Notes under the pieces: model-generated
Told to the model about the DNA's origin: nothing
Database searches by the model: none
The model's input: only the letters and a program-made list of their open reading frames with translations
Translations under genes and position numbers: made by a program
DNA from: Pseudomonadota bacterium
GTDB lineage: Bacteria; Chloroflexota; Ktedonobacteria; Ktedonobacterales; JADMIN01
Length of the DNA: 64,000 nt
Assembly (NCBI GenBank): GCA_021324535.1
Contig: JAJPIU010000026.1
Location: 14,093-78,092 of the forward strand
Direction: 5' to 3'
In this document: positions 36,427 to 53,247 of the stretch, one piece after another
Layout: the number at the start of each line of letters is the position of its first letter
How positions within the stretch are numbered: position 1 is the first letter of the stretch

Positions 36427-37671
36427 TTATCGCTCCGCTACCAATTGCATCTCAGGGGTGGGGGCAATGTTGGCGCAAGCCGTCTGCAACATTGCGACGG
36501 TGAGCGGCGCATGCGCCCAGATGGCCTCTTCGATGGCGCTGGGAATGATGCGTTGTGTCAAGTCCGAGTAGGTATAGCGGTGTGGATTTGGGCCATAACC
36601 GGGCAAAGGGCGCTCCCTTGTGGCCGCAACCAACCGCGCAAGATCTTCATGACTGAACGGAAGCCCCTGCAACACGCGCGTAAAGACTTGCAGGCGTTGC
36701 TCATCGGTGGGCCGGTCAAAGTGATAGGTGGCGATGGCGCGGCGCACAATCGCCGCATCGAGTGTTCGTGCTAGGTTGGTGGCAAAGAGTACCGCCATTG
36801 GCTTGCCTCGCAGTTGATCAATGCACTGGATGAGCGCATTGACACCCGCGTCATCCTCATGGTGGGTCTGGCGCCCCCCGCGCGCCTGCGCCAGAGAATC
36901 AGCCTCATCAATCAGAATCGCCACCGGAATTTGCTCACGCTCGTGCAAGCGAACCGCCTCTTTGAAGGCGCGCGCGATATTCTTGGTGAGTTCTCCGACG
37001 TGGCCGCCTCCGCGTAGTTGGGCGTTCAGTACAACCAGCGCCAATTCTATGTGCAGGTTGGTCGCTAGCGCCTGCCCTATGCTCCGGGCGAGGGCCGTCT
37101 TGCCTGAGCCAACTTGGCCTTCGAGGATCAACAAGGGATAGCGATCTCCGATGATCTGGGCCAGCTCATGGGGAGGATGCGCGCCATAGGCGTCCTGCGC
37201 CCAGGAGCGCATCGTCCAGGGTTGCAGGAGGAGGGCAAGTTTGCGAAACAGATCGGTCTGAATGGCTTCGAGACCAACCAATGAGGCGTATACCTGGCCC
37301 ATGTGCTCGTTGGGATATCGGATGGTCTCGGAGATGAACGTGGAAACATCCTGCCCCTCATCCTCTTTGCGAATTTGATATTGCGCATAGGTAGTGGTGG
37401 ACTGCGCCATCACGTTGGCTGTGACAGGGAGGAGATTGATCAGGCGCGCCTGCACAGTATAGCCTTGAATCCGCAAGAGCATCTCGCGGCCCACTCGCAG
37501 CGTCTCTCCGGCGCGCAGACGACGCACGATCGCCTCGCGCACCTCAGAGCTGAGCGCTATATAAAAAGCCTCTTCCGATGTGTCTTCGTTGACGCCGCGA
37601 TACTGCCACAGAGCCTCACGCGCAGGCACAGGTGTTTCGTGCGGCGCTTGCTGTGCGCCCGGTTGCCCCAT
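36427..37671 (-). CDS. AAA+ ATPase (classical clade), operon gene 10
   Basis: SD GGGGAGGAGG lies before ATG 37671. Walker A is GQVGSGKT (37096-37119), Walker B is ILIDEAD, sensor-1 is FATN, and RR follows. The N-terminal domain of about 170 aa is unassigned. Confidence 0.85.
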   Translation of the reverse strand: MGQPGAQQAPHETPVPAREALWQYRGVNEDTSEEAFYIALSSEVREAIVRRLRAGETLRVGREMLLRIQGYTVQARLINLLPVTANVMAQSTTTYAQYQIRKEDEGQDVSTFISETIRYPNEHMGQVYASLVGLEAIQTDLFRKLALLLQPWTMRSWAQDAYGAHPPHELAQIIGDRYPLLILEGQVGSGKTALARSIGQALATNLHIELALVVLNAQLRGGGHVGELTKNIARAFKEAVRLHEREQIPVAILIDEADSLAQARGGRQTHHEDDAGVNALIQCIDQLRGKPMAVLFATNLARTLDAAIVRRAIATYHFDRPTDEQRLQVFTRVLQGLPFSHEDLARLVAATRERPLPGYGPNPHRYTYSDLTQRIIPSAIEEAIWAHAPLTVAMLQTACANIAPTPEMQLVAER

Positions 37672-37705
37672 GAGGAACCTCCTCCCCTGTCGTGCGAACG
37701 CTCAG

Positions 37706-39565
37706 TTAATGCGACACCTGTTGCTGTGGCGCGACGTATCCCGTCTGCTGTTCATCAGCAGAATTCGAAATGAGCGTGTCGGCAATAGTAGACTGCGACA
37801 AGGCAGCCGCATCAACCACGGCATTGCCGGTATCGTGTGATATATCTTGTCCGTTCCAGGTGACGTTCACCTCGTCGAAAGCGTCAAGCGCAACGTGGTA
37901 GTACCCCAGTGAACCATTGCGTGCGTCGAGCTGGCGCACTCCACCGACTGAGGTTTCGACGATCTGATTGGCTTGATAGCCCATATGTTCAAGCGCCTGG
38001 CGCACCCGGTCAGCGACCAGCGCCTGCCGCTTATTGACATCAAATTCCGGCAGCGGCGCCGCTGTGACTTCCTGCGCGCTCATGGACGCAAGATCGTGCT
38101 CGTGCAACCAGCTTGGGCTCACGATCACAATGCCTTTGCGTCGTAGCGCCGCGAAGATACGTTGTGCGTCTTTTTTGCACGCTTCCCCGATATAGCCGCT
38201 AAAGTCATAATCTATCCGCCCATCGGCGAGCAGGGTAAACGTCACCAGCTTGTCGTCATGCCCCATGCCAGCGGGCGCGTCATTGCGCAAACCTGTCACG
38301 CGATAGACACCTTCATCCACCTCGACAACAATAGGTCGGTGGCTTGTTGCATCCTCCGCGCCGAAGCCCTCCTCGGCTAGCGTTTGGGCAATGACCTCGG
38401 CGACGGAATATTGCTGGCGCGCGTTGACTGCGGCAAACAGTCCATTTTTGAGATCTTCTATCTGCGTTTCAAGAGCGCCGAGCGCGGCGTCATCACTCGC
38501 CACCGCCATTTGTTTCAGGCGGGCAATGTTATTCGTGTAGACGTCGACCTCTTGTATGGGCAGCGTTTGGGTCTGTGCGGCTTCGCGGGCTAGCGTCTCC
38601 AACGCATTCAAGCGCCCCTGCAACAACGCGCGCCGCATCAGCAGATCATTATCTGGCGCGCTACAAGTGGCAACGATAGCCTTCACCTGATTCGCCGCCT
38701 CCGTGAGTTGCTGGCGCGCGTTTTCGAGCGCCAGTTTCGGGTCTTGCCCTAGGCGTCCCCAGGCAATATCCGCCTCGTTGGCCAGGGTGTCAAGCCGCTG
38801 GAGTTGCATCGTCAGTGAGGCTGACACTCGCCCTGCGCTCTGCGCGATAGCCCGAGCGGAGGCGATTTGGGTACGCACCTGGATGAGCAGCCCACGCGCC
38901 TCCTCACGAGCGCCAGCGAGCAGTGTGTTGGTCGCTGTGATCTGCGCCCAGGCGTTGTCGAGTGCGGTATTCGCCTGAACGATGGCCTGCGCATCGCCCT
39001 GTAAGGCATCGGTTGCCTGGGTGATCACAGCCGGGGCCAGGCCAATCTGCTTGGCTGCCTCAATGCGGGCTTCAAGTTGAATGCGGGGTAGCGCGAGGCG
39101 CGCCGCTTCTTCATGCGCACGCATCTTCTGCGGATCGCTCGCTGCTGCTTTGGCGTCGCGCTGGGCCTGTGCAATAGCTGCCTGGATCGCAGCAGTATCC
39201 TGGGCTGTTGTGAACGAGCCGGTTGGGCCTGCGCGCATTTGTTGTTGGCCGAGCTTTTGGACGGCATAGGTGACAAAATCCGACTGGCTTTGGAGGTTCT
39301 GCAGCGATGCCCTGTACGAAGCGTCTTGAGCTTGCCACCATGAATTCACCGCTGCTTCATAGTTCTCGCGCAGTTTCTCTCCGCACCAGGCGATACCCTT
39401 TGCCGTCAGGATGACAGTACCCCCAACGACAACCGCAGCGCCTGCGGCCAAAAGCAGCGGCAAGGCAACTACATCTCCCACACCTGTGGTACTCATTTGA
39501 TCTGCTCCGGTTTCTAAACTTGTGGACGGAATCGCGACGATTGTTGCTGTTGCGTTTGTGCTCAT
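37706..39565 (-). CDS. membrane-anchored long helical/coiled-coil protein with globular C-terminal domain, operon gene 9
   Basis: ATG 39565 has SD GGAGGCAGAGAC. TM is VVALPLLLAAGAAVVVGGTVILTA. About 350 aa of Ala/Gln/Leu-rich helix follow (AIQAAIAQAQRDAKAAASDPQKMRAHEEAARLALPRIQLEARIEAAKQ...), then about 200 aa of mixed alpha/beta. No family was recognised. Confidence 0.65.
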   Translation of the reverse strand: MSTNATATIVAIPSTSLETGADQMSTTGVGDVVALPLLLAAGAAVVVGGTVILTAKGIAWCGEKLRENYEAAVNSWWQAQDASYRASLQNLQSQSDFVTYAVQKLGQQQMRAGPTGSFTTAQDTAAIQAAIAQAQRDAKAAASDPQKMRAHEEAARLALPRIQLEARIEAAKQIGLAPAVITQATDALQGDAQAIVQANTALDNAWAQITATNTLLAGAREEARGLLIQVRTQIASARAIAQSAGRVSASLTMQLQRLDTLANEADIAWGRLGQDPKLALENARQQLTEAANQVKAIVATCSAPDNDLLMRRALLQGRLNALETLAREAAQTQTLPIQEVDVYTNNIARLKQMAVASDDAALGALETQIEDLKNGLFAAVNARQQYSVAEVIAQTLAEEGFGAEDATSHRPIVVEVDEGVYRVTGLRNDAPAGMGHDDKLVTFTLLADGRIDYDFSGYIGEACKKDAQRIFAALRRKGIVIVSPSWLHEHDLASMSAQEVTAAPLPEFDVNKRQALVADRVRQALEHMGYQANQIVETSVGGVRQLDARNGSLGYYHVALDAFDEVNVTWNGQDISHDTGNAVVDAAALSQSTIADTLISNSADEQQTGYVAPQQQVSH

Positions 39566-39587
39566 GTGTCTCTGCCTCCGGCCAGCG

Positions 39588-41972
39588 CTAGCTTTGCCAT
39601 CTGGTTGAGATGACCGGCGCATCGGCGTTTTTCCCTCTGGGCTGTGAGTGCCCGTCGCCGTTCCTATAGGAGGCAGCGCCTGTGGAACCATAGTGCGATG
39701 CGCCAGCGGTCAACCCCTGACTCACACGTAGGGCCAGTTCACGTATGGCGACGTCGAGTCGATCTGGATCCAGACGCCCGTCTGCGCCCATGATTCCCTC
39801 GAAGATCGGGCGATTGGGCAGGTGTTCGGGCAGCGTCGAGTAGAAGTTGCACGACCTGATAGCCAGCAGGCTCTGCAAATCGTACATATCAGGGTTGTGG
39901 TTCATCTTGAAGTCGGCCAATGCGGCGAAGAGGTGTTGCGAGGTGATTGGCGGCAGATCCGTGTCGCTCAGGGTTCCACGATCTTCCGCATCTTCGCAGG
40001 CCAGTTCCATCGCCCGTCTGACGACGATCTCGATTTCGGCGCCTGTCAGACCCATTGCTGCCGACCGCTCGGCAACGCTGGTGAACTTCGCCAGGTCTTC
40101 ACGTGTTGGATCCATCCGGTCGCCGATCTTGTGGCCACTTTGTTGCAGATCGCCACCATAGGTGATACTGAGCGTGTTTCCGCTCTGCTTGCGGATGGCG
40201 TCGGGCATCGTAGCAAAGATGCGACGCGACTCGTCGCCATCGGGGGCAAGCAACGGCACGACGCGATCAAATCGCCGCAGGAGCGCGTCATCGAGATAGT
40301 CTGAGCGATTGGTCGCAGCGACCCACATGATGCGCCCACGATTCGACGCCTTTGACATCTCTTCGAGGATGCGCGCGAACATGCGTGCGCTGACGCCACT
40401 GTCGCCATTCTGGCCAGAGTCGCGCCGCCCCATCGCTTGATCGATCTCGTCAATGAAGACAATCACAGGATGCAGATCATGCAACAGGCCCAACACCATA
40501 TCGAGGTTGCGCTCAGAACTGCCGACCCAACGATCTTGAATGTTACGCATTTTGACGAGATTGAAGCCGCCCTCAAACGCCAATGCTTCAGCGATGATCG
40601 TCTTTCCGGTTCCTGGAGGCCCGGCCAGCAGCAACCCACTGGGGATGAGGGGTGAGTGACGACCTTGCAACATCAACGCTGTGCGCCTGCGCAAAAACTG
40701 CTTGAGTTTTTCCAGACCGCCGATCTCGTTGAAGCCACGCTCCGGTGGGACAATCTCCAGGAGTTGTGAGCTTTGCGACTGAATAACCTCGGCTTTTTCG
40801 CTACGGACATCTAGCGGCGTGAGAACCTCCAGCCGATTTTGTTGACGGCATTGCATGATGATACGACGATTCAGGTTGTCAATGTCCATCAGGCGCATCC
40901 CCTGTGTAGAGCGTGCAAGGATTCGCTGGAGAGCTGGCCCATCGGCCAATTGCCCCTTGGCAAAATCAGGCGACAGCGCAGCCAGCCGATACCGGTTGTC
41001 AGGGTGTTGCGCCTTATGGCGGATATAGGCGAGTCGCTCATCATCGTTGGGAAGCGGCACACGGATGCTGCGACAACCGCTGCCCTCGGCGCTGATGCTC
41101 GCAGGAAGCTGGCCGATGTTAGTTGTCAGCAAGACGATCACATTGTTCGTCATACGGATCACCGGGTCGAGCGCCCAACTTTGCAACACTTCCAGCGCCT
41201 GCAATTGCTCTGTTGTTCCCTGCCCTTCCCCTACATGAAAAGGTGTCAGCTTCTCGGCGTAATCGAGAATGACTGCGATGGGAGCCTGAACGGGGGGATA
41301 TGGCGCGCTCCGTTGAAAGGCTTGCTGCTCGCTTATGCCATCGGGGTAGTATTGCTGGCGTAAGAGATGACCCAGAATCTTCAGATGATCAGGCACACTA
41401 CGGGGCAGATCAATCTCTTGTCCTTCGACCCGCTGGCCGGGTGGACGCACCCCTTGTTGTCCTTGTTGTCCTTGTTGCCCTTGCTCCGCTGGGCGCCGCT
41501 GAAGTCCCAATGATTCCATCGCCGTGCGCAGAAAGCGGCCCGCCGATGTTTGCGCGCCTAACTCGGTAGCGAGTGGTTGACCGATCCCCAGATGCTGACG
41601 ATCTTCGGCGAGCAGCCCGCTCGCCAGTGTATAGGTGTAGGTGGCCTGACAATTCAGCTCTTCGTAGAGCAAATCATGCAGGTACTCACGGAAAACACGC
41701 GGCTGTGTTTGCACGCCAACCACATCCCACAAGGGAAGGTGTCTACTATTCTTTTCCTGTTCTTCCTGGCGGCTGAGGTTAAGGACGAAGTCATTGATGT
41801 TGAAATGAATGACGAATTGCCGGGCGATGCGCCCGCGATAGAGCGTCACAAACTCTTGCGCCCACAACGGGCGTCTGAATGGAGGAACCTGTGGATGAAC
41901 CTGCTGACCACCTTGAGCCATCGCTTGCCCCGGCTGCGGCGGATAGGGATACTGTGGAGGTGGGTACACCAT
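39588..41972 (-). CDS. two-module AAA+ ATPase (degenerate D1, canonical Cdc48/Vps4-like D2), operon gene 8
   Basis: ATG 41972 has SD AAAGGAGC. The N-terminus is P/Q/Y-rich. The D1-like region has no P-loop (IAVILDYAEKL, VIVLLTTNIGQL, RSIRVPLPNDDER). D2 has GPPGTGKT (40599-40622), VIVFIDEID, VAATN, and DDALLRRFD. A QGQQGQQGQQG insert is encoded by a 9-bp tandem repeat at 41452-41478. Confidence 0.85.
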   Translation of the reverse strand: MVYPPPQYPYPPQPGQAMAQGGQQVHPQVPPFRRPLWAQEFVTLYRGRIARQFVIHFNINDFVLNLSRQEEQEKNSRHLPLWDVVGVQTQPRVFREYLHDLLYEELNCQATYTYTLASGLLAEDRQHLGIGQPLATELGAQTSAGRFLRTAMESLGLQRRPAEQGQQGQQGQQGVRPPGQRVEGQEIDLPRSVPDHLKILGHLLRQQYYPDGISEQQAFQRSAPYPPVQAPIAVILDYAEKLTPFHVGEGQGTTEQLQALEVLQSWALDPVIRMTNNVIVLLTTNIGQLPASISAEGSGCRSIRVPLPNDDERLAYIRHKAQHPDNRYRLAALSPDFAKGQLADGPALQRILARSTQGMRLMDIDNLNRRIIMQCRQQNRLEVLTPLDVRSEKAEVIQSQSSQLLEIVPPERGFNEIGGLEKLKQFLRRRTALMLQGRHSPLIPSGLLLAGPPGTGKTIIAEALAFEGGFNLVKMRNIQDRWVGSSERNLDMVLGLLHDLHPVIVFIDEIDQAMGRRDSGQNGDSGVSARMFARILEEMSKASNRGRIMWVAATNRSDYLDDALLRRFDRVVPLLAPDGDESRRIFATMPDAIRKQSGNTLSITYGGDLQQSGHKIGDRMDPTREDLAKFTSVAERSAAMGLTGAEIEIVVRRAMELACEDAEDRGTLSDTDLPPITSQHLFAALADFKMNHNPDMYDLQSLLAIRSCNFYSTLPEHLPNRPIFEGIMGADGRLDPDRLDVAIRELALRVSQGLTAGASHYGSTGAASYRNGDGHSQPRGKNADAPVISTRWQS

Positions 41973-41992
41973 GATGTGCTCCTTTCTGAAGA

Positions 41993-42274
41993 TCAGCCAC
42001 AAAGCGCGATCTGATTGACTCGTACTTCTAGCCCAACCTCGGCGCAGGCAGCCAGGAAGGCTTCTATCTGCTTCCGTGCGCCCTTGAAATAGATGCTGCC
42101 ATCGGGTAATATCCGCACGACAAAGCGGTCTATCTCCTCCGGCTCGTCGACGAACGGCCCCCTTGGCAGCGGCGGGATCAATCGCCCTGTGGCGGACGCT
42201 TCATCGGATGGCGCGGCTTGTGGCGCTGGTGTGGTGATGGCCGTTGTTTGCCTTACTCTGGTACGTTTACCCAT
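41993..42274 (-). CDS. 93-aa hypothetical protein, operon gene 7
   Basis: ATG 42274 has a weak SD. The N-half is disordered (TTPAPQAAPSDEASATG) and the C-half is compact (DRFVVRILPDGSIYFKGARKQIEAFLAACAEVGLEVRVNQIALCG), ending in Gly. No family was recognised. Confidence 0.5.
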   Translation of the reverse strand: MGKRTRVRQTTAITTPAPQAAPSDEASATGRLIPPLPRGPFVDEPEEIDRFVVRILPDGSIYFKGARKQIEAFLAACAEVGLEVRVNQIALCG

Positions 42275-42355
42275 AATGTCGTTCTCTTTCTGCTTGCCAA
42301 ACCAAGCGCATAGGCGCACATCTAGCCAGACACCAGCTTTACTACCTGGAGCTGC

Positions 42356-43219
42356 CTAGAGCATTGGAATCGGCTCATGCGACTGCTCACCAGTGTTCGC
42401 CATTCCGCTCGTCTGCGCGGCGAAACGCGCCTTCAATTCACTATTTTCTCGCCGCAGCCTGTCATTCTCCTGTTTGAGCGTGCCCAAATCGCGCTGCGAC
42501 GAGGTTTGGTGCGTTCTGAGCCGGGCAATATCCTCCTGGGCAGCCGTCAGTTGGCTTTGTAGCTGGCTCTTCTCGAATTGCTCATGTGTCAGGGCGGTGT
42601 TCATGTCAGCGAGTTCGTCTTGCATTTTCTGCTGTGTACGTTGCAGCGCGTCACTCATTGTGGCGAGTTGCGCTTTTGCGACGTCTCGCTCGCCGGTCAG
42701 TGTGCTCACCTGCCGGTTCAACGACGAGATTTGCTGTTGGTATTGCTGGATCGCCGCGCTTGGCTTGGCTGCGCTATTGGCCTGCATCTGCCTGATTTGG
42801 GCGTTATAGGCGTCTCGCTCGCGCTGAAAACTGGCTCGTTCGTTTTCTAGTTGCGCTTTCCAGGCATCGTTCACGCGCTGAATATCCTGCGTGGCGACGC
42901 TATCTGCGCCACTATCGCCTGGTATTGCGCCAGGGATGTGAACAGCTACGCCAAGCACATCAGGCGCAATGTTGCGCAGTGTCCCCAGATGTGGCATCGC
43001 CGCGCGAAGATTGTAGCGCGCTGTCGGGCTATCAAAGTCGAGGCGCTGGAACCGTTGGTCAGCAGACAACTGTCTCACAACCTCGCTCACTCCCTCGTCG
43101 TTATCAATTTGCCTGCTTGCCTGCACCAGATCGGCGTTGATGACCGCCTCAGTGATTGGCCCACTATCAGGATGAATATACAAGCGAAACTGCCGCGTCA
43201 GCGCCTGACCGCGTATCAT
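42356..43219 (-). CDS. globular N-domain plus ~170-aa coiled-coil protein, operon gene 6
   Basis: A strong SD AAGGAGGGG lies before ATG 43219. The C-terminal two-thirds is heptad-like and Q/E/R/L-rich (NAQIRQMQAN...ISSLNRQVSTLTGERDVAKAQLATMSDALQRTQQKMQDELADMNTALTHEQFEKSQLQSQLTAAQEDIARLR...). Confidence 0.7.
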   Translation of the reverse strand: MIRGQALTRQFRLYIHPDSGPITEAVINADLVQASRQIDNDEGVSEVVRQLSADQRFQRLDFDSPTARYNLRAAMPHLGTLRNIAPDVLGVAVHIPGAIPGDSGADSVATQDIQRVNDAWKAQLENERASFQRERDAYNAQIRQMQANSAAKPSAAIQQYQQQISSLNRQVSTLTGERDVAKAQLATMSDALQRTQQKMQDELADMNTALTHEQFEKSQLQSQLTAAQEDIARLRTHQTSSQRDLGTLKQENDRLRRENSELKARFAAQTSGMANTGEQSHEPIPML

Positions 43220-43260
43220 CGCATCCCCTCCTTATGTGGGTCTGTCACAGACCCACCCCG

Positions 43261-43914: not shown

Positions 43915-43960
43915 AGCCGTTCTCCCTTGCTATCGTTCACTGCCGTTCGCTGGCGCTTCG

Positions 43961-43996
43961 AGATGTTCAAGATGTTCAAGATGTTCAAGATGTCAA
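43961..43996. repeat. 9-bp tandem repeat x4 (AGATGTTCA; last unit degenerate) inside the largest intergenic gap of the operon
   Basis: agatgttca agatgttca agatgttca agatgtcaa. On the operon strand this is TGAACATCT x3, 47-82 nt upstream of the gene-5 start (43914). Confidence 0.9.
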
Positions 43997-44786: not shown

Positions 44787-47660
44787 CTACTCGTGCCTCA
44801 GGAATGCGATTAGCGCCCACTCATCACTCTGGCTGAGCAGGCGAGTCGCGCCACCGGCCATTCCCAGCCGATCTATCGCGTGCAAATTGGCGGCATCAGC
44901 GCCAACGAATGCGAAATCGTGTCCCGGAGAGCCATACATTGGCGTCGCATGCTTGGCGACTTCCTCCCACATCTCGCGGGCGTTGGCGTTCTGCTGCGGA
45001 TCGAGCGCTGGGCCAATCGCGGCGACTTCCCGATCCAGATAGCACAGGAACGATTGGAGCCAAAACTGGTGGATTGCCTCTAAGAATTGGTCGTTGCTCA
45101 TCAAAAGCACGCCCCCTCCAGCGTGATGGAAATACTGGCGCAGGCGTTCGTTGATCTGCTGGTAGTTGGTGTGCCATCCCTCACGTGGCCGAGTAACTCG
45201 CCGGTTCGCAAATGTGGCATACACCGGTTCAAGCTCGTGTCCGCGTGGCAATGGCGGACGACGCAACTGTGCGCCGTTCGCGACGATAATGTCGTGAACA
45301 CCAACCGGGCCGTCGAACAGTTTCTCGCTGGTGGTGTGGGCGCGCTCGTCCGCTTCATCGCTTGCGCGTCGCAGCCGCTCCGCCCAATGTTCCAAGGTGT
45401 TGCGCATCTGGCGAATCGCGTAGCGCAGGCGTGTGATGACGGCGGCGCGAAGTTGACTCTCACGCTGGATGGACTGCGCCCGAATGCGAAGCGCCAGAAA
45501 CTCGACCTGATCACGTCGCGCTCTTTCAAGTTGTTTGAGTCCGACTTTGTAGTAGAAAGCGCTTCCCGCGCCCAATATGCCTACTGCCCCTGCAATTGAG
45601 AGGGCTGCGCCGATAGGCGTATTGGTCAACTCTGCCGGAAGTTCGACATTGGTCAGACTTGCCAGGGCTGGGACGCTTGCCACGGAAGCAGTCGCGAGCG
45701 TCGCCAATGACGGCAGATGCGTGCGATAATATCTCACGCGATTGGCCAGGCGCCTGCTGGTGCGCTCCAGATTCGCAAGACGTGGATCGACACGACGCGG
45801 CGTCTGGTTATTCCCCGATCCACCAGGCTGATTTCCCCCAGGTAGGGGAGACGCCGGATTCATACCTGGCGCAGGCGTAGCGCCAGGCGCATTTCCTGCG
45901 GCCTGTCCTTGGGCGGTGTTGGCTCCGCCTGGAGGAGCGCCCCGAACGGTCGGGCCGACAATTTGTTGTGCGCCATTCTGATCAACCACAGTCTGGTTGA
46001 CATTTTCCCAGCGTTGGTCGTTTGCCAATCGTTCAAATTCGGCAATGCGATATCTGATTTCGTCGTCCGCTTCTTTGCGCCAGTAGCTCGCAGTGTCACC
46101 AAGTTCGCCAATGGCGTCGTCGAGCGCCTGCACATAGGCGCGCGCCTCAACCCAGGAGTTGCGATCTCGCAGCAATAGCTCATTGGAGATCAAACCGATC
46201 TGCCGCCTGATCTCCGCCTCGGCCTGGCGCCATGCCTCCTGTGCGGCGGCGGCCCATAGTTCAAAGCGATCATTGGCAGTTTCAAACGCGACCTCCACTT
46301 GATCATGCCAGATAAGCTCAGGATCTATCCGGGGCGCGGCGCGCTGAAGTCGTCGCACGCGCTCCTGAATGACGCCGTAGTCGAGTATGCCCTGCATGCG
46401 CTTTTGCGCCACTTCTACTGCCTGAAGAGCATTGCGCGCCGCCTCTGGTAGACGCCGTGGATCGGGCCAGGGTTGCATGCCACTGAGCGGGACAGTCGCG
46501 GTGGGGCGGGTGGGAAAATGCTGCAACCAGGGGATGATGGTATGCTCCATCAACTGCAGGGCGGAGTGTTGGCGATCCCGCACATTGCGCATGGCTCCAT
46601 CCAGGTCCTGTGTTTGTTGCGCCCAATCTCTGAGCAACTCTGCAATGTCGTGTGAGGAGCAATAGAGTTCGGCCTGCGCGCGCGGAAAACGCACCATCGC
46701 TACCCCCAGCGTTCCATCCGATGTCTCTCGCCTCCCCATCGTTGCTTGTCCAGCAATCTGCTGAAATACTGGTGTCTCTGTTATGCCCGTCGCTATCAAC
46801 GCAAAAACCGCCTCCGCCATAAGATAGCGTATACGTGGCTCCTCGTATATACCACCGGTTTGCTGTGCTTGCGCAAAGAAGAGCTGAAGCACCCTCGGTG
46901 GCATGGGTGGCGCGCCAGGGGAAGCTGGGAGCGCCTGCACCCAGGCGTCATACAGGGCATCCTGCAACTGCGGGGTAATTGCCGGAGCCGTGGCGACTAA
47001 CGTGGCGGGGTTCATCCCCGGAAGAGCTTCCTGGCCTTGCAGTTGGCCTAGATTTGGATTGAATTGGTTCGGGGGAGCAGGATCGCTCAAGACATAGGTA
47101 ATCAGCGTGTCACCAGTTGCGCGCGCTCCAAGTGTGCTCAGGAAGGTCGCCAGCGTGGCTTGAACCTGAGACGACACAGACACCAAAAAAGGATCGGTGG
47201 CGCTCCCCACGACGATAATTTGTGCGCGTTGGGTCGGAACCATATACCCGGCAAGTTCGATGTTTTCCTTGACTTCACGAGCATTTTGCACTCGTATGAG
47301 CGCACGTCTCAGCGTATCATGTAGTGGTTCTTGTGCCCTGGCATTGCCAGCGTTGCCTGCATTGCCTGCATTGCCTGCATTGCCTGCATTGGCCGCATTC
47401 CCGCCTATATTCGCATGGCTCATTGCGCCAGCGTTCGCGATTCTGGCAGGCAATTCGCGAATCTGCGCCGATCCGCCAGTGGCGTCTACCTGAATCGCAA
47501 CGACGCCTTCGAGCAGGCGCACGTCGAGGTTGGCCATCAGGTCTTCGAATGAGCCTATGACATGATCTGCTTGATAGACGCGCCCGCTATGATCGCCCAA
47601 AAAGATGACGATGGTTGGGCGAAAGGACGGGGCTGGAAGTGGCGCTTGCGCGTGATTCAT
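44787..47660 (-). CDS. 957-aa divergent paralog of the tubulin-like protein lacking the GGGTGSG signature; hydrophobic hairpin; operon gene 3
   Basis: SD AAGGGG lies before ATG 47660. The N-terminus PTIVIFLGDHSGRV...VVAIQVDATGG parallels PAVVITLGTTSS...VAIVMIDTDIS of gene 2. AQIIVVGSATDPFLVSVSSQVQATL replaces AQVYVVSFLGGGTGSGIVSDIAVMI. A (GNA)n insert is present. The hydrophobic region LATLATASVASVPALASL...IGAALSIAGAVGILGAGSAFYY lies at about 45545-45725. Confidence 0.75.
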   Translation of the reverse strand: MNHAQAPLPAPSFRPTIVIFLGDHSGRVYQADHVIGSFEDLMANLDVRLLEGVVAIQVDATGGSAQIRELPARIANAGAMSHANIGGNAANAGNAGNAGNAGNAGNARAQEPLHDTLRRALIRVQNAREVKENIELAGYMVPTQRAQIIVVGSATDPFLVSVSSQVQATLATFLSTLGARATGDTLITYVLSDPAPPNQFNPNLGQLQGQEALPGMNPATLVATAPAITPQLQDALYDAWVQALPASPGAPPMPPRVLQLFFAQAQQTGGIYEEPRIRYLMAEAVFALIATGITETPVFQQIAGQATMGRRETSDGTLGVAMVRFPRAQAELYCSSHDIAELLRDWAQQTQDLDGAMRNVRDRQHSALQLMEHTIIPWLQHFPTRPTATVPLSGMQPWPDPRRLPEAARNALQAVEVAQKRMQGILDYGVIQERVRRLQRAAPRIDPELIWHDQVEVAFETANDRFELWAAAAQEAWRQAEAEIRRQIGLISNELLLRDRNSWVEARAYVQALDDAIGELGDTASYWRKEADDEIRYRIAEFERLANDQRWENVNQTVVDQNGAQQIVGPTVRGAPPGGANTAQGQAAGNAPGATPAPGMNPASPLPGGNQPGGSGNNQTPRRVDPRLANLERTSRRLANRVRYYRTHLPSLATLATASVASVPALASLTNVELPAELTNTPIGAALSIAGAVGILGAGSAFYYKVGLKQLERARRDQVEFLALRIRAQSIQRESQLRAAVITRLRYAIRQMRNTLEHWAERLRRASDEADERAHTTSEKLFDGPVGVHDIIVANGAQLRRPPLPRGHELEPVYATFANRRVTRPREGWHTNYQQINERLRQYFHHAGGGVLLMSNDQFLEAIHQFWLQSFLCYLDREVAAIGPALDPQQNANAREMWEEVAKHATPMYGSPGHDFAFVGADAANLHAIDRLGMAGGATRLLSQSDEWALIAFLRHE
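47341..47403 (-). repeat. imperfect 9-bp tandem repeat x7 (GCATTGCCT) encoding (GNA)n within gene 3
   Basis: gcattgcca gcgttgcct gcattgcct gcattgcct gcattgcct gcattggcc gcattcccg. The translated sequence is NIGGNAANAGNAGNAGNAGNAGNAR. Confidence 0.9.
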
Positions 47661-47704
47661 AGCAACCCCTTTGAATAACCTTGTATTTCTGGTGAATGAG
47701 AGTT

Positions 47705-50689
47705 CTAGAGATCAGACCCATTGGGGCCATAGCCACCCTGCGGCCCTGGCTGCGCCCAATTGGGAGAATTAGGCGCGTTTTGCGTATTAGGCGGAGGCGT
47801 GTTCTGGCGCGCAGCGCCTCCTGGCGGGAAATAGCCGCCCTGTGGCCCAGATTGTGGCCCAGATTGTGGCTGAAAGCCACCTGCTGGCCCTCGCGGCATG
47901 CCGGGTGGTGGCGCCCAGCCAGGCTCGTTTGCTCGCTGAAACTGTGGCCGGATGACACGTAAAACCACTGATGTGTTTCCACTGACATCTCTGCCAAAGA
48001 CCAGTCGCTCCATCTCGCCCGAGCTATGCACAGGCGCCTTATTCATGCCATAGCTGCCCGGTTGGCCATCACCATACCAGGCGTATTGGTGGCGTAAATA
48101 TTCGGCCATCGCACTGTTCGCGGAACTAAAAAAATCAGGAATGGTGCGAATGCTGATGCCATGTTGCGCATAGTTGACCTGCAGACGATGCGGATCGCTT
48201 TCGACGATGACACGCGCCTGCGGCACACGCTGCGTCAGTGGGACTGCCGCATTGAGCGCGCTCTCCAAGATGGGCCTTTGCCCCGCAGAGTCGCGCCAGT
48301 TCATGCCCAGGTAGAGGGTAGGCAACAGCGCGCTCGAGCCAGCCAGCCACAGCCCTGGCTCATACGTGACCAACTCCCCTAAAACGCCTTTGAGGTTCAC
48401 GATGTGTCGCTCGAGGTAAGGCTGTGATTTGCGTTGCGCTGCGCTCACCGCGATATTTTCTTCGGCGGCGATACCTAGTTCCAGGAGGTCGAAAAGATTC
48501 TTACGCTTCAGCCAGGCGTTATACATCATTTCGAAGTATTCCACCACCTTTTGCGGCACCTGCGCGGCGCGTTCTTGGGCGAGGTCTTGCTCGGTAGCTG
48601 CGCCGTCAGCGTCACGGCGGGCGGCATTGACAAAGGCAATGCACTCTGCAACCTTACTCCGTAGCGCGTTGGCGACATCAAAGGTATCCCGATGTGTACA
48701 ATCGCCCAGAGCCAGATTCTCATTGGCAGTTGTCGCCTCGCCTGGTGGGATGACGTCGGCGATGGCGATGTCCATATTGAGAATGCCAATCGTGGCGGCG
48801 CGGAAGACCCCTTCCATCGCAGGAATAAAGGCCAGACCTTGCGCCTTCGCTTTATCGGTGAACTTGCCCAGGTCAAAGAGATGACGTTGGTGTTGGTGGG
48901 GGCGCTCAAGCTTGCCAAGCCAGGCGGCGCGCGCATAGCCACGCTCGCGTAACTCTGCGGCGCGTTCCGAAGCACGCGCGCCCGCCAGCCAATCGCCTTC
49001 CGCCTGCAAAAGGCTCGCCACCTCAGCTATCAGTCGGTCGAACAACTGCGCGAGTTGTGTTGCGCGCGTGTGTTGGTAATTGGCTCGCTGAGTTGTGTTA
49101 TACGCTTCTGCGACGGCGGCAGGGATATCGCGCTTGAATATTCCTGGGATTTTGTCCTCAAGAAATGTAGGCAGCAGGCTATGGTCGAGTCCATGCTCCA
49201 GTTCAACCGGTCTTCCTGGCACGCCTTGTGTCAACTCCCGGCCAGCGCGCAGGCGATCACGTGCCTCTTGATACTCAGCAAGCAGCCGCTCATAATGGAG
49301 AATCTTGCGCCCTTGCATGCCCAATGGGATGTTGAGACCTAATTGCTGCGCTTCGGGAATGGTGCGAATGCGCGCCTCTTCGCGGTCGCCCGCGCGATTA
49401 ACCACCTGAACAATCTGCTGGTTCGTGTCGCCAAGTGATCGTTGCAGTTGTTGCCACAGATAGTCTCGCTGTCGCGGGGGGGCATCCTCAAACTCGCTCG
49501 CCTGATACTGGCGTGGCTGACTAATCGTCAGGTCGTTGGGAGCGGGTGTTCCCTGAACGACCGCCGCTATGCCTCTCCATTTGTTTACCCACTCATTGCG
49601 TTGAGCGTCGGATATTGGGAGTGAAGGAGGCCGCTGCCCGATGAACTCCGGAAGTCCCAGCATATATGAGGCGGCTATCTCGGCGAAGGCGCGCCGAGCC
49701 TCTTCGATGGGGAAACGCACCTCATACGGGCACGAAGCGCTAAAGTTGGTTGGCAGGTATTGATCATCGCTGCCCGCCAATACCGTGCGGTCGGGCGCTT
49801 CGGATCGCTCGATGTCGCCCACGCCAGAGGCGTCGGTGATGCGCTGGAAGAGGTCGAGTCCGACGATGCGCGCGTTCTCCTCAACACTATTGAGATTGGT
49901 GCGCCCCAACAGATAGATTTCATTGAAGATCGGCGCGTCTGGCACAAAGTATGAATGCGCCAGCAAATATTTCTCATATGGGCCGCTGACGCCACTGATG
50001 ATCTGCGTTGCCTGTCCATGCGCCATGATTTCGAGCAAAGCGGCGGTGGCGTTGCTCTTGCGCCAGCTTTCTGTGTTGGCGTTGACACCAGGCATGCTGT
50101 CGCCCGGCAAAATGCCGAAGAGCACCAGGCGCTGCTGGCGCTGTTCCCCGATCAACATCTGGCGAATCATCACGGCAATATCGGAGACAATGCCGCTGCC
50201 TGTGCCACCCCCCAGGAACGACACCACATAGACCTGCGCGCCCAGGGAACGCACCTCATTCTCTCGCCCGGTCAGTTGCGAAACAGACGCCAGCGCCGCA
50301 CGCAATTCCTTTTCCACTTTATCGCGGTCATAACACAGCGCGACATGCCCATTGTTGCGGATGCCACCAGCGCCATAATCAAAATATTGGGGCAACTTGG
50401 TGGGAATAAAGGTATGATTGGCGATAGCGCGTGGCAGTTCGTCGGTGTAGGTGGCCCCAGCGGGGACTGCGATCTGCGCCTTGTAGATGTGAAACGCGCC
50501 ACTGTGCTGATCAAGAAAATCCTGAAATCGTGGGCGTGATATGTCAGTATCAATCATCACAATCGCCACAGCGTCGCGGTCATCTTGCTCCAACCCCAGC
50601 AGGTGGTAGCACAGTTCATTTGCCGCTATCGAAGATGTGGTGCCCAGCGTGATGACGACCGCTGGCGTCCGAATCGCTTTGGATCGCAT
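47705..50689 (-). CDS. 994-aa tubulin/FtsZ-superfamily GTPase-like protein (Tubulin_2-type), operon gene 2
   Basis: SD GAAGGG lies before ATG 50689. The tubulin signature GGGTGSG is at aa 160-166 (nt 50192-50212, verified codon by codon). YGAGGIRNNG at aa 105-114 is T3-loop-like. About 700 aa of helical extension follow, then a P/G/Q/Y-rich tail (partly a 12-bp tandem repeat at 47841-47870). Confidence 0.8.
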   Translation of the reverse strand: MRSKAIRTPAVVITLGTTSSIAANELCYHLLGLEQDDRDAVAIVMIDTDISRPRFQDFLDQHSGAFHIYKAQIAVPAGATYTDELPRAIANHTFIPTKLPQYFDYGAGGIRNNGHVALCYDRDKVEKELRAALASVSQLTGRENEVRSLGAQVYVVSFLGGGTGSGIVSDIAVMIRQMLIGEQRQQRLVLFGILPGDSMPGVNANTESWRKSNATAALLEIMAHGQATQIISGVSGPYEKYLLAHSYFVPDAPIFNEIYLLGRTNLNSVEENARIVGLDLFQRITDASGVGDIERSEAPDRTVLAGSDDQYLPTNFSASCPYEVRFPIEEARRAFAEIAASYMLGLPEFIGQRPPSLPISDAQRNEWVNKWRGIAAVVQGTPAPNDLTISQPRQYQASEFEDAPPRQRDYLWQQLQRSLGDTNQQIVQVVNRAGDREEARIRTIPEAQQLGLNIPLGMQGRKILHYERLLAEYQEARDRLRAGRELTQGVPGRPVELEHGLDHSLLPTFLEDKIPGIFKRDIPAAVAEAYNTTQRANYQHTRATQLAQLFDRLIAEVASLLQAEGDWLAGARASERAAELRERGYARAAWLGKLERPHQHQRHLFDLGKFTDKAKAQGLAFIPAMEGVFRAATIGILNMDIAIADVIPPGEATTANENLALGDCTHRDTFDVANALRSKVAECIAFVNAARRDADGAATEQDLAQERAAQVPQKVVEYFEMMYNAWLKRKNLFDLLELGIAAEENIAVSAAQRKSQPYLERHIVNLKGVLGELVTYEPGLWLAGSSALLPTLYLGMNWRDSAGQRPILESALNAAVPLTQRVPQARVIVESDPHRLQVNYAQHGISIRTIPDFFSSANSAMAEYLRHQYAWYGDGQPGSYGMNKAPVHSSGEMERLVFGRDVSGNTSVVLRVIRPQFQRANEPGWAPPPGMPRGPAGGFQPQSGPQSGPQGGYFPPGGAARQNTPPPNTQNAPNSPNWAQPGPQGGYGPNGSDL

Positions 50690-50736
50690 CGTTCAACCCT
50701 TCTATTTTCCAGTGTGTCCACTCGTTGACAGGTCAT

Positions 50737-53247
50737 CTAAACTGACCAGCTAGACCAGGAATCTGGCGACGCCTCTGTGTTGGTTTTCTTGTGTCGTTTT
50801 TTCTTCTGGCTGGGGATATTCACTGGCGGGTCACCCCAATCTGCGTCCAATGACGAATTGGCCGAGCCTCCTTGGCTTGGCTTTCCGCCCGACCCAGTAG
50901 AAGAGAAGGTATACTCACTGCGATCGTTGTTCAGCCCGTTTGTGGGGAGTGGCTTCTTGGGCAAGGGATCACCCGTCAACATGCGCCAGAACTGATGGTT
51001 GCGGCGATTTCTACGCACCTTGATGGTGTGGCGCCCAAAGATCAACATCGCGCCGTCTTCATCACCAAAGGCTTCGCGCGAGGTGCGCCAGTCGGGATGC
51101 AGGAACCAGCGCAGGATGCTCCGTGAGCGCGCCCTTTTGAAGTCGCCGGTTGCCTCTGAGTCAGACGGGTCTCTGGGAATGCGCTGCCATTGACCCTGTG
51201 GGCGCGGGGTCAGGGGACGTCCGATGAATAGGAAATAGATCAGCCAGGCGAGGAACGGATAGACGACAACTGTCCAGAACCAGGCCTTGACCTCCTGCAC
51301 AGGCGTCGCAGGCAATACCGTCAGATGAACCTGGCGTGTGGTGACACCGAAATCGCCGTGACTATCAGCGAATGTTCCTTGCGTCTGGAAGGTAATGGTA
51401 TAATCGCCGCTCACCGGCGCCGGGAAAATCAAGACGAAGTGGCCTGAGCCTTCATCAGTGATCTGCACGGGGACGCTTTTATTCGTACCCTTGCGCGTGG
51501 CCACGCCTGCTACCGTCGCATTGGCATACAACTGATTGTGCAGCGTCACCTCGCCCTCAAGGGCGGCCGAGGGGCGCGGCGGCTGGTTGCCCAACGGCCA
51601 ACCACTCAACCATGAGAGCAACGGCAGACTATAGAGGAATTGCAAGCCGGGATCCCAGGAAGTGACTGTTGCGTTGACTGTACTTGTCGTTGGCGCAGGC
51701 GGTCGCCCACTCAGCAGCAGCGGTGTGGGGAACAGTTCCAGCCGGATATTGCGGTCGGCGCTGGAGATCGGCACTCCGCTGACCTGGGTCACGTCTATCG
51801 CGATGCGATACACACCCGGCGGCGCGCTCTGGGGGATATTGACGTTGACCTGATAGACCCCTGGGCTGACCTGTGTGAAATTCAGCCCGATCGTGTAAGG
51901 CGCGCCGTTGGACGTCTGTCCTGTAAAACTCAGCGTGCCAGCGATAGTATATTGTGTGCCGATGACCGTTGCGCCATTGGCCGTCAGCGCCGCCGTGATG
52001 CTAAACGGCTGGCCCAGGGGCAACGCGGCGACGCTCGATGTTGGCTGCGTGATGGTCAGTTGTAACGTTGAAAGGATCAGGCTGTCTACGAGATACCGTC
52101 CCTCACCGGTCACATTGATTGTCCAGGCGCCCGCCTGCACACCCAATGAGCCACCATCAATCGAGAAGATGGCATAGTGGGGGTCGTTGGCGACGAAGAC
52201 CCCCGCGACCGCCGGAGGGATCACTTCCCCGGAGGGTGTGGTCAGCGTCACGCGTGTCGCCACCTGATCTTTCACAACGATCACATCCAGATGTTGCACA
52301 TAGGACGGCACAATCAGGTCTTGCGAGTCGGTTGCCCCGCTTAGTGTCGTGGGCGCCACAGTCGGGCCGAGTGTACGATGATTGCGAAGGGCGAAGATGT
52401 CCACGAAGAACGGCGCAATATTGAGCGCATCGGGGGCGCCGCTCACCGGCCCCTGGCTGTCATCGTAGAAGTTGCCTGATGTCGCAGCAGAGAGATTTTG
52501 CAAAAAAGGGTGAAACGTCTGATCGGCGCCGAGCGCGATAGTATCGATAGGGAAATGCGCCTGTTGAAACTTTGGCAGCAATTCCTGCTGGATGGCGTTG
52601 ATCTGGTCGGTGGTATCTGGATCGGGAGTTCCATCGGTGAGCAGAATCACCGAGCCAGTGCGCCCATTTCCGGCGGTGGCCGCTGTGAGCATGCTGAGCG
52701 CCTGGTTGAGCGCATCATAGGTTGGTGTGGCAGCATCGGGCGCACAGTCGTGTGAGTCGCTGGTGATGGTCTCTTCCAGATGGGCGCGCGCGGAGAGGGT
52801 GGCCATATCAGCGGGTTGCGCCCAGACCTGGGCAGTCTGGAAGTTGTGTGGGCCACCCCGAGCGCCGGTACTATTGTCCAGCCCGATCACTCCAATATAA
52901 TCGTTGGGGCCACTCAGGGCAATATAGGCGTTCGCCGCAGAGCATCGCAACCCGTCGGGATCATTGACACTCATGGATCCCGACATATCGAGCACGATTA
53001 CTGTCACCAACCCCGCCGTGGCCCGGCTCGTTCGTTGTTGATGCGCGCTCGTGGCCACCTGCTTCGCGAGGGAAGGCAAGGGCGCTGCGGACACCTGTGG
53101 GGCGAACACTGTCTGTGCGCCCAGCAGACAGATACACAACAACGTAATAGTCAAGGTTCCCGCCAGGGAGGCGCTTGCCCACGATGCGTGCGGCGCTCGC
53201 TCGTCAGAAGGCGCCAACACATTCCATCTGTAAGATGATCGCGCCAT
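50737..53247 (-). CDS. bitopic surface protein: extracytoplasmic vWA (MIDAS) domain plus Ig-like repeats, TM, basic cytoplasmic tail; operon gene 1
   Basis: ORF to 53307; the likely start is ATG 53247 (SD AAAGGA). The signal-anchor is LAGTLTITLLCICLLGAQTVFA. The vWA domain has VIVLDMSGSMS (DMSGS = nt 52975-52989), GSVILLTDG and TIALG. Several beta-rich repeats follow. TM is AWFWTVVVYPFLAWLIYFLFIG, and a ~200-aa K/R/S-rich tail completes the protein. Confidence 0.8.
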   Translation of the reverse strand: MARSSYRWNVLAPSDERAPHASWASASLAGTLTITLLCICLLGAQTVFAPQVSAAPLPSLAKQVATSAHQQRTSRATAGLVTVIVLDMSGSMSVNDPDGLRCSAANAYIALSGPNDYIGVIGLDNSTGARGGPHNFQTAQVWAQPADMATLSARAHLEETITSDSHDCAPDAATPTYDALNQALSMLTAATAGNGRTGSVILLTDGTPDPDTTDQINAIQQELLPKFQQAHFPIDTIALGADQTFHPFLQNLSAATSGNFYDDSQGPVSGAPDALNIAPFFVDIFALRNHRTLGPTVAPTTLSGATDSQDLIVPSYVQHLDVIVVKDQVATRVTLTTPSGEVIPPAVAGVFVANDPHYAIFSIDGGSLGVQAGAWTINVTGEGRYLVDSLILSTLQLTITQPTSSVAALPLGQPFSITAALTANGATVIGTQYTIAGTLSFTGQTSNGAPYTIGLNFTQVSPGVYQVNVNIPQSAPPGVYRIAIDVTQVSGVPISSADRNIRLELFPTPLLLSGRPPAPTTSTVNATVTSWDPGLQFLYSLPLLSWLSGWPLGNQPPRPSAALEGEVTLHNQLYANATVAGVATRKGTNKSVPVQITDEGSGHFVLIFPAPVSGDYTITFQTQGTFADSHGDFGVTTRQVHLTVLPATPVQEVKAWFWTVVVYPFLAWLIYFLFIGRPLTPRPQGQWQRIPRDPSDSEATGDFKRARSRSILRWFLHPDWRTSREAFGDEDGAMLIFGRHTIKVRRNRRNHQFWRMLTGDPLPKKPLPTNGLNNDRSEYTFSSTGSGGKPSQGGSANSSLDADWGDPPVNIPSQKKKRHKKTNTEASPDSWSSWSV

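Follow-up and report, generated by a model that had tools for sequence, protein, structure and literature searches.

An eleven-gene operon of Ktedonobacterales that joins an FtsZl1-vWA core to a probable HORMA-TRIP13 pair and a Cdc48-like ATPase

In this study, we analyzed a 64,000-nucleotide (nt) stretch of a Ktedonobacterales genome assembly (GCA_021324535.1, contig JAJPIU010000026.1, positions 14,093 to 78,092 of the forward strand; this whole stretch is called the window) and a minus-strand operon within it, whose genes are named g0 to g10 from upstream to downstream. The operon encodes a membrane protein with a von Willebrand factor A (vWA) domain, two large tubulin-like proteins, two AAA+ ATPases and, most likely, a HORMA-domain protein. 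An earlier note on this DNA had reported ten of these genes (g1 to g10), and the open reading frame (ORF) listing of the window confirmed that ten ORFs follow one another on the minus strand between 53247 and 36427; they were also called by an independent pipeline on a near-identical metagenome contig. With the ORF starts as first listed, a script reproduced all nine intergenic gaps exactly (47, 44, 10, 118, 41, 81, 20, 22 and 34 nt, the largest lying between g4 and g5), and the quoted purine-rich Shine-Dalgarno sites did precede starts. One of these gaps has to be corrected: homologs of g9 start at MSTxG, and we therefore revised the start of g9 from 39565 to 39496, which makes the gap between g8 and g9 91 nt instead of 22. 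In addition, an eleventh member had been left out, since a radical-SAM gene (g0) lies directly upstream of g1 across a 108-nt gap. The best sigma-70-like promoter match on the minus strand is located 38 nt upstream of the g0 start, a candidate position that fits g0 as the first gene of the operon. The conserved unit comprises these eleven genes, g0 and the ten reported ones, in one operon (Table 1).

Table 1. Genes of the operon and candidate promoter, in window coordinates
Feature	Position	Strand	Basis
Sigma-70-like promoter match, best on minus strand	54569..54597	-	TTGCGA-17-TATAAT with TG; consensus match only
g0, predicted radical-SAM enzyme, 391 amino acids (aa)	53356..54531	-	TIGR04337, Pfam Radical_SAM
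g1, bitopic vWA membrane protein, 836 aa	50737..53247	-	VWA_3, motif and transmembrane (TM) scan
g2, predicted FtsZl1/Tubulin_2 protein, 994 aa	47705..50689	-	Pfam PF13809
g3, putative degenerate tubulin-like paralog, 957 aa	44787..47660	-	hhalign against g2 family
g4, four-TM protein with Q-rich termini, 247 aa	44033..44776	-	TM scan
g5, probable HORMA-domain protein, 217 aa	43261..43914	-	Foldseek, hhalign, weak Pfam match
g6, N-terminal domain and coiled coil, 287 aa	42356..43219	-	Coiled-coil type matches only
g7, small protein, 93 aa here, typically 72 aa	41993..42274	-	Family alignments
g8, Cdc48/VAT-like AAA+ unfoldase, 794 aa	39588..41972	-	Pfam AAA, PDB
g9, TM-anchored protein, 596 aa	37706..39496	-	Family alignment, gene call
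g10, predicted bacterial Pch2/TRIP13 AAA+ ATPase, 414 aa	36427..37671	-	PADLOC, PDB

First, the upstream genes g1 to g4 encode a membrane vWA protein, a pair of tubulin-like proteins and a multi-pass membrane protein. The motifs named for the operon in the earlier note (DMSGS, GGGTGSG and GPPGTGKT/DEID/ATN) were confirmed by script, and the predicted TM segments of g1, g3, g4 and g9 fit the topologies it had proposed. The assignment of g1 as a membrane vWA protein was supported by a Pfam VWA_3 match (1.6e-7, 31.9 bits against a cutoff of 27), by the metal-ion-dependent adhesion site (MIDAS) DMSGS, encoded at nt 52975-52989, and by its TM segments. In the predicted layout, a signal/TM segment at residues 23-41 and a TM segment at 655-673 enclose an extracytoplasmic part made up of the vWA domain and a beta-rich region, and ~160 aa of basic sequence form the cytoplasmic tail; for the Ig-like repeats that had been proposed, only weak matches were obtained (Filamin, E 0.038).

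Analysis of g2 placed it in the tubulin/FtsZ superfamily, as had been claimed: it matched Pfam PF13809 (Tubulin_2, also named FtsZl1) at 7.4e-23 over residues 22-287, with 81.8 bits against a cutoff of 27, and its GGGTGSG signature (T4 loop), which begins at residue 160, was invariant in 25 homologs. FtsZl1/Tubulin_2 is the most divergent branch of the superfamily. In g2, the N-terminal GTPase domain is followed by a long helical stretch, then by a C-terminal domain that is conserved and a tail rich in P, Q and G (low-complexity stretches of this composition are common to g2, g4 and g8). We regard g2 as a predicted GTP-binding tubulin-like protein, whose fold, hydrolysis and polymerisation are likewise predictions. 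A total of 159 homologs were found at E <=1e-5, and every named one came from Ktedonobacterales; no g2 relative was present in IMG/VR, and a viral origin was rejected on this ground.

The downstream neighbour g3, proposed earlier to be a paralog of g2, showed no similarity to it by BLASTP, but the two family profiles (10 g3 orthologs and 25 g2 homologs) were aligned by hhalign with 89% probability and an E value of 2e-6. The match spans the N-terminal GTPase core from S1/T1 to S4/T4/H4, and VGSATDPF in g3 stands where g2 has GGGTGSG, so that the reported lack of the signature was correct. Sequence and profile searches of the PDB with g3 gave nothing significant. With moderate confidence, g3 may thus be considered a degenerate tubulin-like paralog; it has a single scored hydrophobic (TM) segment at ~683-701, and its gene followed g2 immediately in all loci whose sequence extends that far. 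Residues 86-107 of the window's g3 (47340-47405) form a short (N-A-G)n repeat, which none of the aligned homologs has. The next protein, g4, has four TM segments and Q-rich termini, and its position was filled by a protein of similar size in both short and long forms of the locus (see below), with tblastn matches in ~12.

Second, the downstream genes contain what is most likely a recognisable conformational-switch module, and not just the remodelling unfoldases that had been suggested. The AAA+ ATPase g10 had been assigned to the Cdc48/Vps4 type; the family stood and the type did not, as the sequence evidence identifies g10 as a bacterial Pch2/TRIP13 protein. It matched the PADLOC TRIP13 profile at 3.6e-83 over 293 of its 302 positions and the Pch2/Trip13 crystal structures from the immunity systems known as CBASS (cyclic-oligonucleotide-based antiphage signalling system) at 2.5e-48 (6PB3) and 2.3e-46 (6P8V). 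Its closest relatives are plasmid genes annotated Cap6 (37-40% identity), which sit in operons of the order CD-NTase (cGAS/DncV-like nucleotidyltransferase), HORMA, TRIP13 and effector. GSGKT and DEAD motifs begin at residues 188 and 255, respectively, and compared with Cap6 there is an extra N-terminal region of ~110 aa. A CBASS TRIP13 homolog on a Nostoc plasmid (L052, 3144-4427; 427 aa) is also ~110 aa longer than the usual Cap6 (~310 aa).

Since g10 is a TRIP13 homolog, a HORMA partner is expected, and g5, previously listed as an unknown protein, is the most likely candidate. Its family is small: 58 representatives, all ~215 aa, were found among 1.84 billion proteins. A shared-word homolog search gave only three proteins, and the AlphaFold2 model built from this 3-sequence alignment consequently had low confidence (predicted local distance difference test score, pLDDT, 45.7; C-terminal part <50). 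When this model was compared with the PDB by Foldseek, all of the top 50 matches were HORMA proteins, including 6P8O, 6P8V_H, Mad2 and Rev7, with an E value of 8.8e-3 for Pseudomonas aeruginosa HORMA2 and a probability of 0.93 for the HORMA chain of the Escherichia coli MS115-1 CdnC:HORMA:Trip13 complex. Among 42 members of the g5 family, bacHORMA_1 was the top Pfam family, matched by two members (best E 0.0065). Profile comparison by hhalign with six Cap7 HORMA sequences from CBASS operons gave 63% probability and an E value of 7e-5 over 129 columns, compared with 0.2% and 0.1% probability for the control families of g6 and g9, respectively; both of these were rejected as HORMA partner on this basis. 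Direct sequence and profile searches of the PDB with g5 gave nothing significant. Taken together, these data make it quite probable that g5 is a HORMA protein. Its N-terminus is Gly-rich and disordered, which, by analogy, suggests the kind of handle that TRIP13 pulls on.

Third, g8 is an AAA+ ATPase with one canonical classic-clade module (residues ~440-600), in which GPPGTGKT, DEID and ATN begin at residues 451, 508 and 553. It was matched by Pfam AAA (1.7e-29) and by the D2 domain of VAT/Cdc48 in the PDB (6.5e-50), and the C-terminal module alone accounts for its match to TIGR01243 (CDC48; 106 bits against a cutoff of 803). The proposed dead D1 found no such support. The N-terminal ~400 residues are conserved and lack a P-loop; the order of their motifs (hhhhDYAE, LLTTN and R-x-I-x-x-PLP) suggests an AAA-like fold, but this half alone had no PDB match and aligned to the protein's own D2 with only 0.1% probability by hhalign. 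Residues 164-174 (window 41451-41483) form a QGQQGQQGQQG run.

A gap of 20 nt separates the gene of the small protein g7 from that of g8, which lies downstream, and no other proteins of the set are as well conserved as these two (g8 shows ~52% identity across loci, the highest among the large proteins). The g7 family has 144 members, all from Ktedonobacterales. It had no Pfam match and no fold or sequence match in the PDB. Identity within its 63-aa core is 45-65%, and the core closes with Leu-Cys-Gly, an invariant C-terminus; an AlphaFold2 model (63 sequences, pLDDT 73.6) consists of a beta-hairpin, a helix and an extended C-terminal tail. We infer that g7 is a dedicated cofactor or tag of the g8 unfoldase. 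A ubiquitin-, Pup- or ThiS-like modifier was rejected, since g7 has no beta-grasp fold and no PDB match, and the unit contains no ligase, E1, E2 or JAB protein; a glycyl-radical peptide was rejected along with it.

The remaining three proteins are less readily placed. g6 consists of an N-terminal domain of ~100 aa and a coiled coil of ~170 aa, gave coiled-coil type matches only in database scans and occurs in long-form loci only. g9 has one N-terminal TM segment, an invariant WCGxKxxENY motif and a helical region of ~370 aa, in agreement with the earlier description, which had overlooked a duplicated C-terminal alpha/beta domain of ~190 aa; neither a family nor a PDB match was found. Finally, g0 is predicted from its profile matches to be a radical-SAM enzyme of the AmmeMemoRadiSam or pyruvate formate-lyase-activase-like type (NCBIfam TIGR04337, 233 bits against a cutoff of 220; Pfam Radical_SAM, 1.2e-11). 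A viperin-like identity was rejected (26 bits against a cutoff of 180), as AmmeMemoRadiSam fits better, and our literature searches yielded nothing informative on AmmeMemoRadiSam. Because g0 co-varies with g6 to g10, its substrate is probably one of their products; the most obvious choice is g7 with its invariant Cys-Gly end, a guess from gene linkage.

To show how widely the unit is shared, neighbours were tallied by tblastn and hidden Markov models over a genome scan of 40 loci plus contig look-ups, and three classes of loci were recognized. Class I (long) loci contain the radical-SAM, vWA, tubulin, g3, g4, g5, g6, g7, g8, g9 and TRIP13 genes; there were 14 of them counting the window, all in Ktedonobacterales (the window, L002 from Dictyobacter sp. 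S3.2.2.5, L004, which is cut, L005, L006, L008, L009, L014/L046, L024, L047, L048, L056, L057 and L058). The order from g1 to g9 was the same in these loci, and so was the position of g10 or g0 wherever the contig reached it. Class II loci (n=7; L003, L011, L027 and L029-L032) contain vWA, tubulin, g3, g4 and a HORMA-like gene, with no TRIP13 gene within 10 kb, and Class III loci contain vWA, tubulin, g3 and sometimes g4, for example in Ktedonobacter racemifer. One metagenome-assembled genome carried both a long (L014) and a short (L033) locus. Thus, the syntenic arrangement of the ten reported genes holds in other genomes, with the radical-SAM gene as an additional member: its homolog lay directly upstream of the vWA gene in all eight other long loci whose upstream side was visible, and it occurred in no short-form locus.

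Several further observations bear on the integrity of the unit. A vWA homolog was found upstream of g2 homologs wherever upstream sequence was covered, except on three contigs with TIR-tubulin fusions. Three g7-bearing contigs that had been picked for having no listed g2 match all carried the full set, and in all contigs of sufficient length, homologs of g6, g7 and g9 occurred nowhere but beside the tubulin/vWA core. The flanks varied among loci (ABC transporter, WXG100/FtsK, RHS/NurA, CHAT, insertion sequence (IS) elements, kinase), and these differences outside the segment from the radical-SAM to the TRIP13 gene fix the boundaries of the unit. The proteins g3 to g6 and g9 were only 20-35% identical across loci, compared with 52% for g8. 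In conclusion, the eleven-gene operon is found only in Ktedonobacterales, an order of filamentous, spore-forming Chloroflexota, and in contigs of sufficient length its genes were always found together. The three TIR-tubulin fusions (L049 2802-6098, L059 1131-4466 and L060 229-3477) are full-length g2-like proteins, with 33% identity over ~900 aa and an N-terminal TIR domain; no vWA gene upstream and no g3 downstream were present on the short contig stretches covered, and the fusion in L049 adjoins genes for a phage-type integrase and a DUF4158 (Tn3-type) protein.

Individual loci showed features of their own. A Ser/Thr kinase of ~1000-1100 aa follows the TRIP13 gene on the same strand in two of the three loci that had been picked through g7 (L056 15893-19207 and L058 15642-18686), and there is none in the window. 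In Dictyobacter, the radical-SAM gene is immediately preceded, on its own strand, by the gene for a 1727-aa CHAT (caspase-like) protein (L002, 1063-6246), an arrangement that is not conserved elsewhere. WXG100 and FtsK/SpoIIIE ATPase genes flank the tubulin locus in L047 (18221-20651).

As for the surroundings of the operon in the window, a decayed bacteriophage exclusion (BREX) locus was found 4 kb upstream on the minus strand (57697-59447): BrxL is represented only by its C-terminal half, in one ORF (positions 379-680 of the 680 in the PADLOC profile, E 5e-104), the ORF beside it shows partial matches to both BrxA and BrxB, and brxC, pglX and pglZ were not found among the scanned ORFs. An 867-aa ORF divergent from g0 (54832-57435, plus strand) had no Pfam, NCBIfam or PADLOC match. 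A WXG100/ESAT-6-like gene (16932-17225, plus strand; Pfam 1.1e-21), 20 kb from the unit, is followed by three ORFs without family match (17863-20703, plus strand). The only Rfam matches in the window were adjacent genes for tRNA-Ser(GCT) and tRNA-Leu(CAG) at 60452-60676 on the minus strand.

How might these proteins work together? The earlier picture of a trans-envelope polymer remodelled by AAA+ ATPases is a reasonable one, and we propose a scheme with two layers, a core (g1 to g4) that also occurs alone in many genomes and an add-on (g5 to g10 and g0). The second, degenerate paralog suggests a heterodimeric polymer: g2 and g3 would form a membrane-tethered hetero-polymer with one active and one degenerate nucleotide site, whose assembly could be triggered from outside through the MIDAS vWA domain of g1 and coupled by its 160-aa cytoplasmic tail. 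The HORMA protein g5 would act as a licensing adaptor as in CBASS, its closed state binding a peptide and promoting assembly or activity, and TRIP13 (g10) would reset g5 through the disordered Gly-rich N-terminus, which would set a threshold. With g7 as cofactor or tag, g8 would extract components or disassemble the polymer, and g6 and g9 might serve as scaffolds. The role would most likely be one of conflict or containment in a multicellular filament, by abortive infection, membrane disruption or compartment sealing.

We consider that an assembly of tubulin-like proteins anchored in the membrane, with HORMA-TRIP13 and a Cdc48-like unfoldase as its gate and with such a conflict or containment role, has about an even chance of being the correct description; housekeeping cytokinesis appears less likely. 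A conflict role is suggested by the bacterial precedent for HORMA-TRIP13, which is immunity, by the three g2 homologs with a TIR domain, one of them beside an integrase and a Tn3-type gene, and by related sets of tubulin, vWA and GTPase genes that are predicted conflict systems. It is further suggested by the modularity, paralogous copies and variable, IS-rich flanks of the loci, by the fast evolution of g3 to g6 and g9, and by the decayed BREX locus 4 kb upstream.

Several points weigh against this proposal. The HORMA call for g5 combines a low-confidence model (pLDDT 45.7, best Foldseek E 9e-3) with an hhalign probability of 63%, and is of moderate strength in this respect. Neither the g2 protein nor its family profile had a significant FtsZ or tubulin sequence match in the PDB, and the case for its membership in the superfamily is made by the Pfam Tubulin_2 match, the T4 motif and published work. 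To our knowledge, FtsZl1/Tubulin_2 proteins have no experimental function fifteen years after their description, and the proposal does not account for the roles of g0, g6, g7 and g9. Three further points both count against a conflict role and favor its main rival, a developmental or cell-biological cytoskeletal machine with no part in conflict, in which membrane would be remodelled by the two tubulin-like proteins as hyphae grow, septate or sporulate, and HORMA-TRIP13 and the Cdc48-like ATPase would serve as assembly checkpoints. First, no recognisable enzymatic effector (nuclease, NADase or CD-NTase) or PADLOC system is present in the window's version. Second, the rest of the window is mostly housekeeping. 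Third, conservation of gene order at the level of an order, at ~35% identity, would be equally expected of a vertically inherited developmental machine.

This developmental alternative is possible and clearly less probable than the conflict or containment role. It also gains from the confinement of the family to a morphologically complex clade, from the absence of viral copies and from the original prediction of membrane remodelling for FtsZl1-vWA operons (PMC2875224). It fits less well with the patchy, modular presence of the genes (three classes, paralogs in one genome, variable flanks including IS elements), with TIR fusions of the tubulin-like protein on mobile-looking contigs, with the fast evolution of the accessory proteins and with the fact that bacterial HORMA-TRIP13 is otherwise an immunity module.

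Much less probable is an adhesion, motility or export apparatus, in which a vWA adhesin would be moved or presented by a cytoplasmic polymer and ATPases. CglB is the vWA adhesin of Myxococcus gliding, and g1, with its extracellular MIDAS vWA domain and beta-rich repeats, had a weak NCBIfam match to it; however, this match (E 0.009) reached 15 bits against a cutoff of 200. In the window, a WXG100 gene is located 20 kb from the unit, and one homologous locus is flanked by WXG100/FtsK-type secretion genes, but such flanking genes are not kept between loci, the unit is devoid of secretion-channel or motor homologs, and HORMA-TRIP13 has no known role in such machines. The least probable alternative, by a little, is that g1 to g4 and a separate HORMA/TRIP13/Cdc48-like set (g5 to g10) are two independent systems that happen to be adjacent: the core does occur without g6 to g10 in many genomes, and the 118-nt gap separates g4 from g5, but the exclusive association of g6, g7 and g9 homologs with the core, the co-variation of the far-upstream radical-SAM gene with the downstream module, the HORMA-like genes that follow the core in seven short loci and the rarity of the g5 family all argue against it.

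If the conflict or containment proposal is extended to its full form, the operon would be the first case in bacteria of a HORMA-TRIP13 switch that acts on a tubulin-superfamily polymer and not on a cGAS-like enzyme. It would then be an assembly-based immune or containment device of multicellular bacteria, in which the extracellular vWA sensor licenses a membrane-bound hetero-polymer of one active and one pseudo-GTPase tubulin-like protein, and TRIP13, the unfoldase and g7, possibly modified by g0, reset it. We put this forward tentatively, as it is more doubtful than the proposal itself. If true, the joint action of HORMA, TRIP13, a Cdc48-like ATPase and a tubulin-like protein in one pathway would have a precedent among prokaryotes. 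Should the link between the two layers be functional, the bacterial HORMA-TRIP13 pair would reach beyond cyclic-nucleotide signalling, regulated polymer assembly would gain support as an immune or containment mechanism in multicellular bacteria, and, from an evolutionary point of view, one bacterial operon would unite four protein families whose members work together in chromosome segregation and quality control in eukaryotes. The locus also gives FtsZl1/Tubulin_2 proteins a concrete, testable regulatory context, in which a probable HORMA-TRIP13 switch brings known biochemistry from CBASS and the unfoldase appears to have a dedicated small partner.

Finally, we compared the unit with known systems. 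The statement that no characterised system matches holds at the experimental level: PADLOC matched g10 (TRIP13), more weakly g8 (IetA/TRIP13-type) and, as coiled-coil noise, g6, with no match for g1-g5, g7 and g9, so that a named defence system was rejected. The three outcomes that the earlier note had listed as refuting were all checked, and none of them occurred. The statement does not extend to predicted systems, since the vWA and FtsZl1 core was already published as one. The FtsZl1 family, which corresponds to Pfam Tubulin_2, was named by Makarova and Koonin (2010, PMC2875224), who described ~1000-aa proteins encoded in one operon with vWA proteins, a P-loop GTPase, OmpA-like proteins and kinases, and who predicted, without experiments, a membrane-remodelling machine. 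Both in these operons and in the present unit, a ~1000-aa protein combines an N-terminal divergent FtsZ-like GTPase domain, which contains GGGTGSG, with an extended helical region and a C-terminus that is alpha-helical. A vWA protein that has TM segments and an intact MIDAS is encoded next to it, lineage-specific membrane proteins belong to the operon, and Ser/Thr kinases are sometimes attached, here in L056 and L058. In contrast, their P-loop GTPase and OmpA-like proteins are absent here, and HORMA, TRIP13, Cdc48-like, radical-SAM and degenerate tubulin-paralog components are undescribed in the accessible part of that paper.

A second relative is found among the GTPase-centric conflict systems predicted by Kaur et al. 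(2020, PMC7159879) from neighbourhoods of tubulin, TM-vWA and DO-GTPase/GAP1 genes, which are enriched in multicellular bacteria, including Chloroflexi. The GAP1-N2 systems of this kind have in common with our unit tubulin-domain proteins (one or two) that carry a coiled-coil or helical domain at the C-terminus, and a TM protein with an extracellular vWA domain, and a regulated cytoskeleton-like assembly was proposed there as an immune threshold. Their DO-GTPase/GAP1 and FNIII components differ from the situation here, as Pfam, PADLOC and NCBIfam scans found no P-loop GTPase, GAP1 or FNIII domain among the eleven proteins; the thresholding nucleoside triphosphatase role would pass to HORMA-TRIP13 and the Cdc48-like AAA+ ATPase. 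By term search, HORMA and TRIP13 occur in that paper only in the introduction and the references and not with the tubulin systems, and Cdc48 is not mentioned.

Bacterial HORMA and TRIP13 are so far known from CBASS immunity (PMC7159879). Type III CBASS (Ye et al., 2020), in which Cap7/Cap8 are the HORMA proteins and Cap6 is the TRIP13 protein, and the unit have in common a Cap6-like g10 with all ATPase motifs and a g5 that resembles Cap7/HORMA2 in fold and profile comparisons and has a disordered N-terminal tail. They differ in that the HORMA and TRIP13 genes here are separated by four genes and that HORMA-like genes occur without TRIP13 in the seven short loci. No CD-NTase model of PADLOC or Pfam matched any of the eleven proteins, and neither database revealed cyclic-nucleotide-activated effectors (NucC, SAVED and similar) in the unit, and therefore a CBASS identity was rejected.

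The other likenesses concern single components. With Cdc48/p97/VAT and Mpa/ARC, g8 shares the classic-clade module, Walker motifs, sensor-1 and a W-V-G pore loop; unlike Cdc48/VAT, it lacks the double-psi-barrel N domain, and a second AAA+ ring was undetected by our searches; where those unfoldases have ubiquitin, Pup or UBX cofactors, g8 is paired with a 72-aa protein of a novel family. Although g0 falls in the AmmeMemoRadiSam family, the AMMECR1 and MEMO1 partner domains of that system were not found in the scanned window ORFs or the called genes of homologous loci. By analogy, two adjacent tubulin-superfamily paralogs with one degenerate nucleotide site recall alpha/beta-tubulin and BtubA/B; no orthology is implied, and g2 and g3 are ~1000 aa and membrane-linked. 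HORMA, TRIP13 and a tubulin-superfamily polymer protein encoded together likewise recall the Mad2-TRIP13 spindle checkpoint, but kinetochore-like components are lacking here, and the link between HORMA and polymer comes from gene linkage. We found no paper that connects HORMA/TRIP13 with tubulin-like or vWA systems. Thus, the unit is of the FtsZl1-vWA kind at its core, with a module borrowed from the CBASS kind, and is not itself CBASS: both halves are of known kinds, and their combination is undescribed and tightly conserved.

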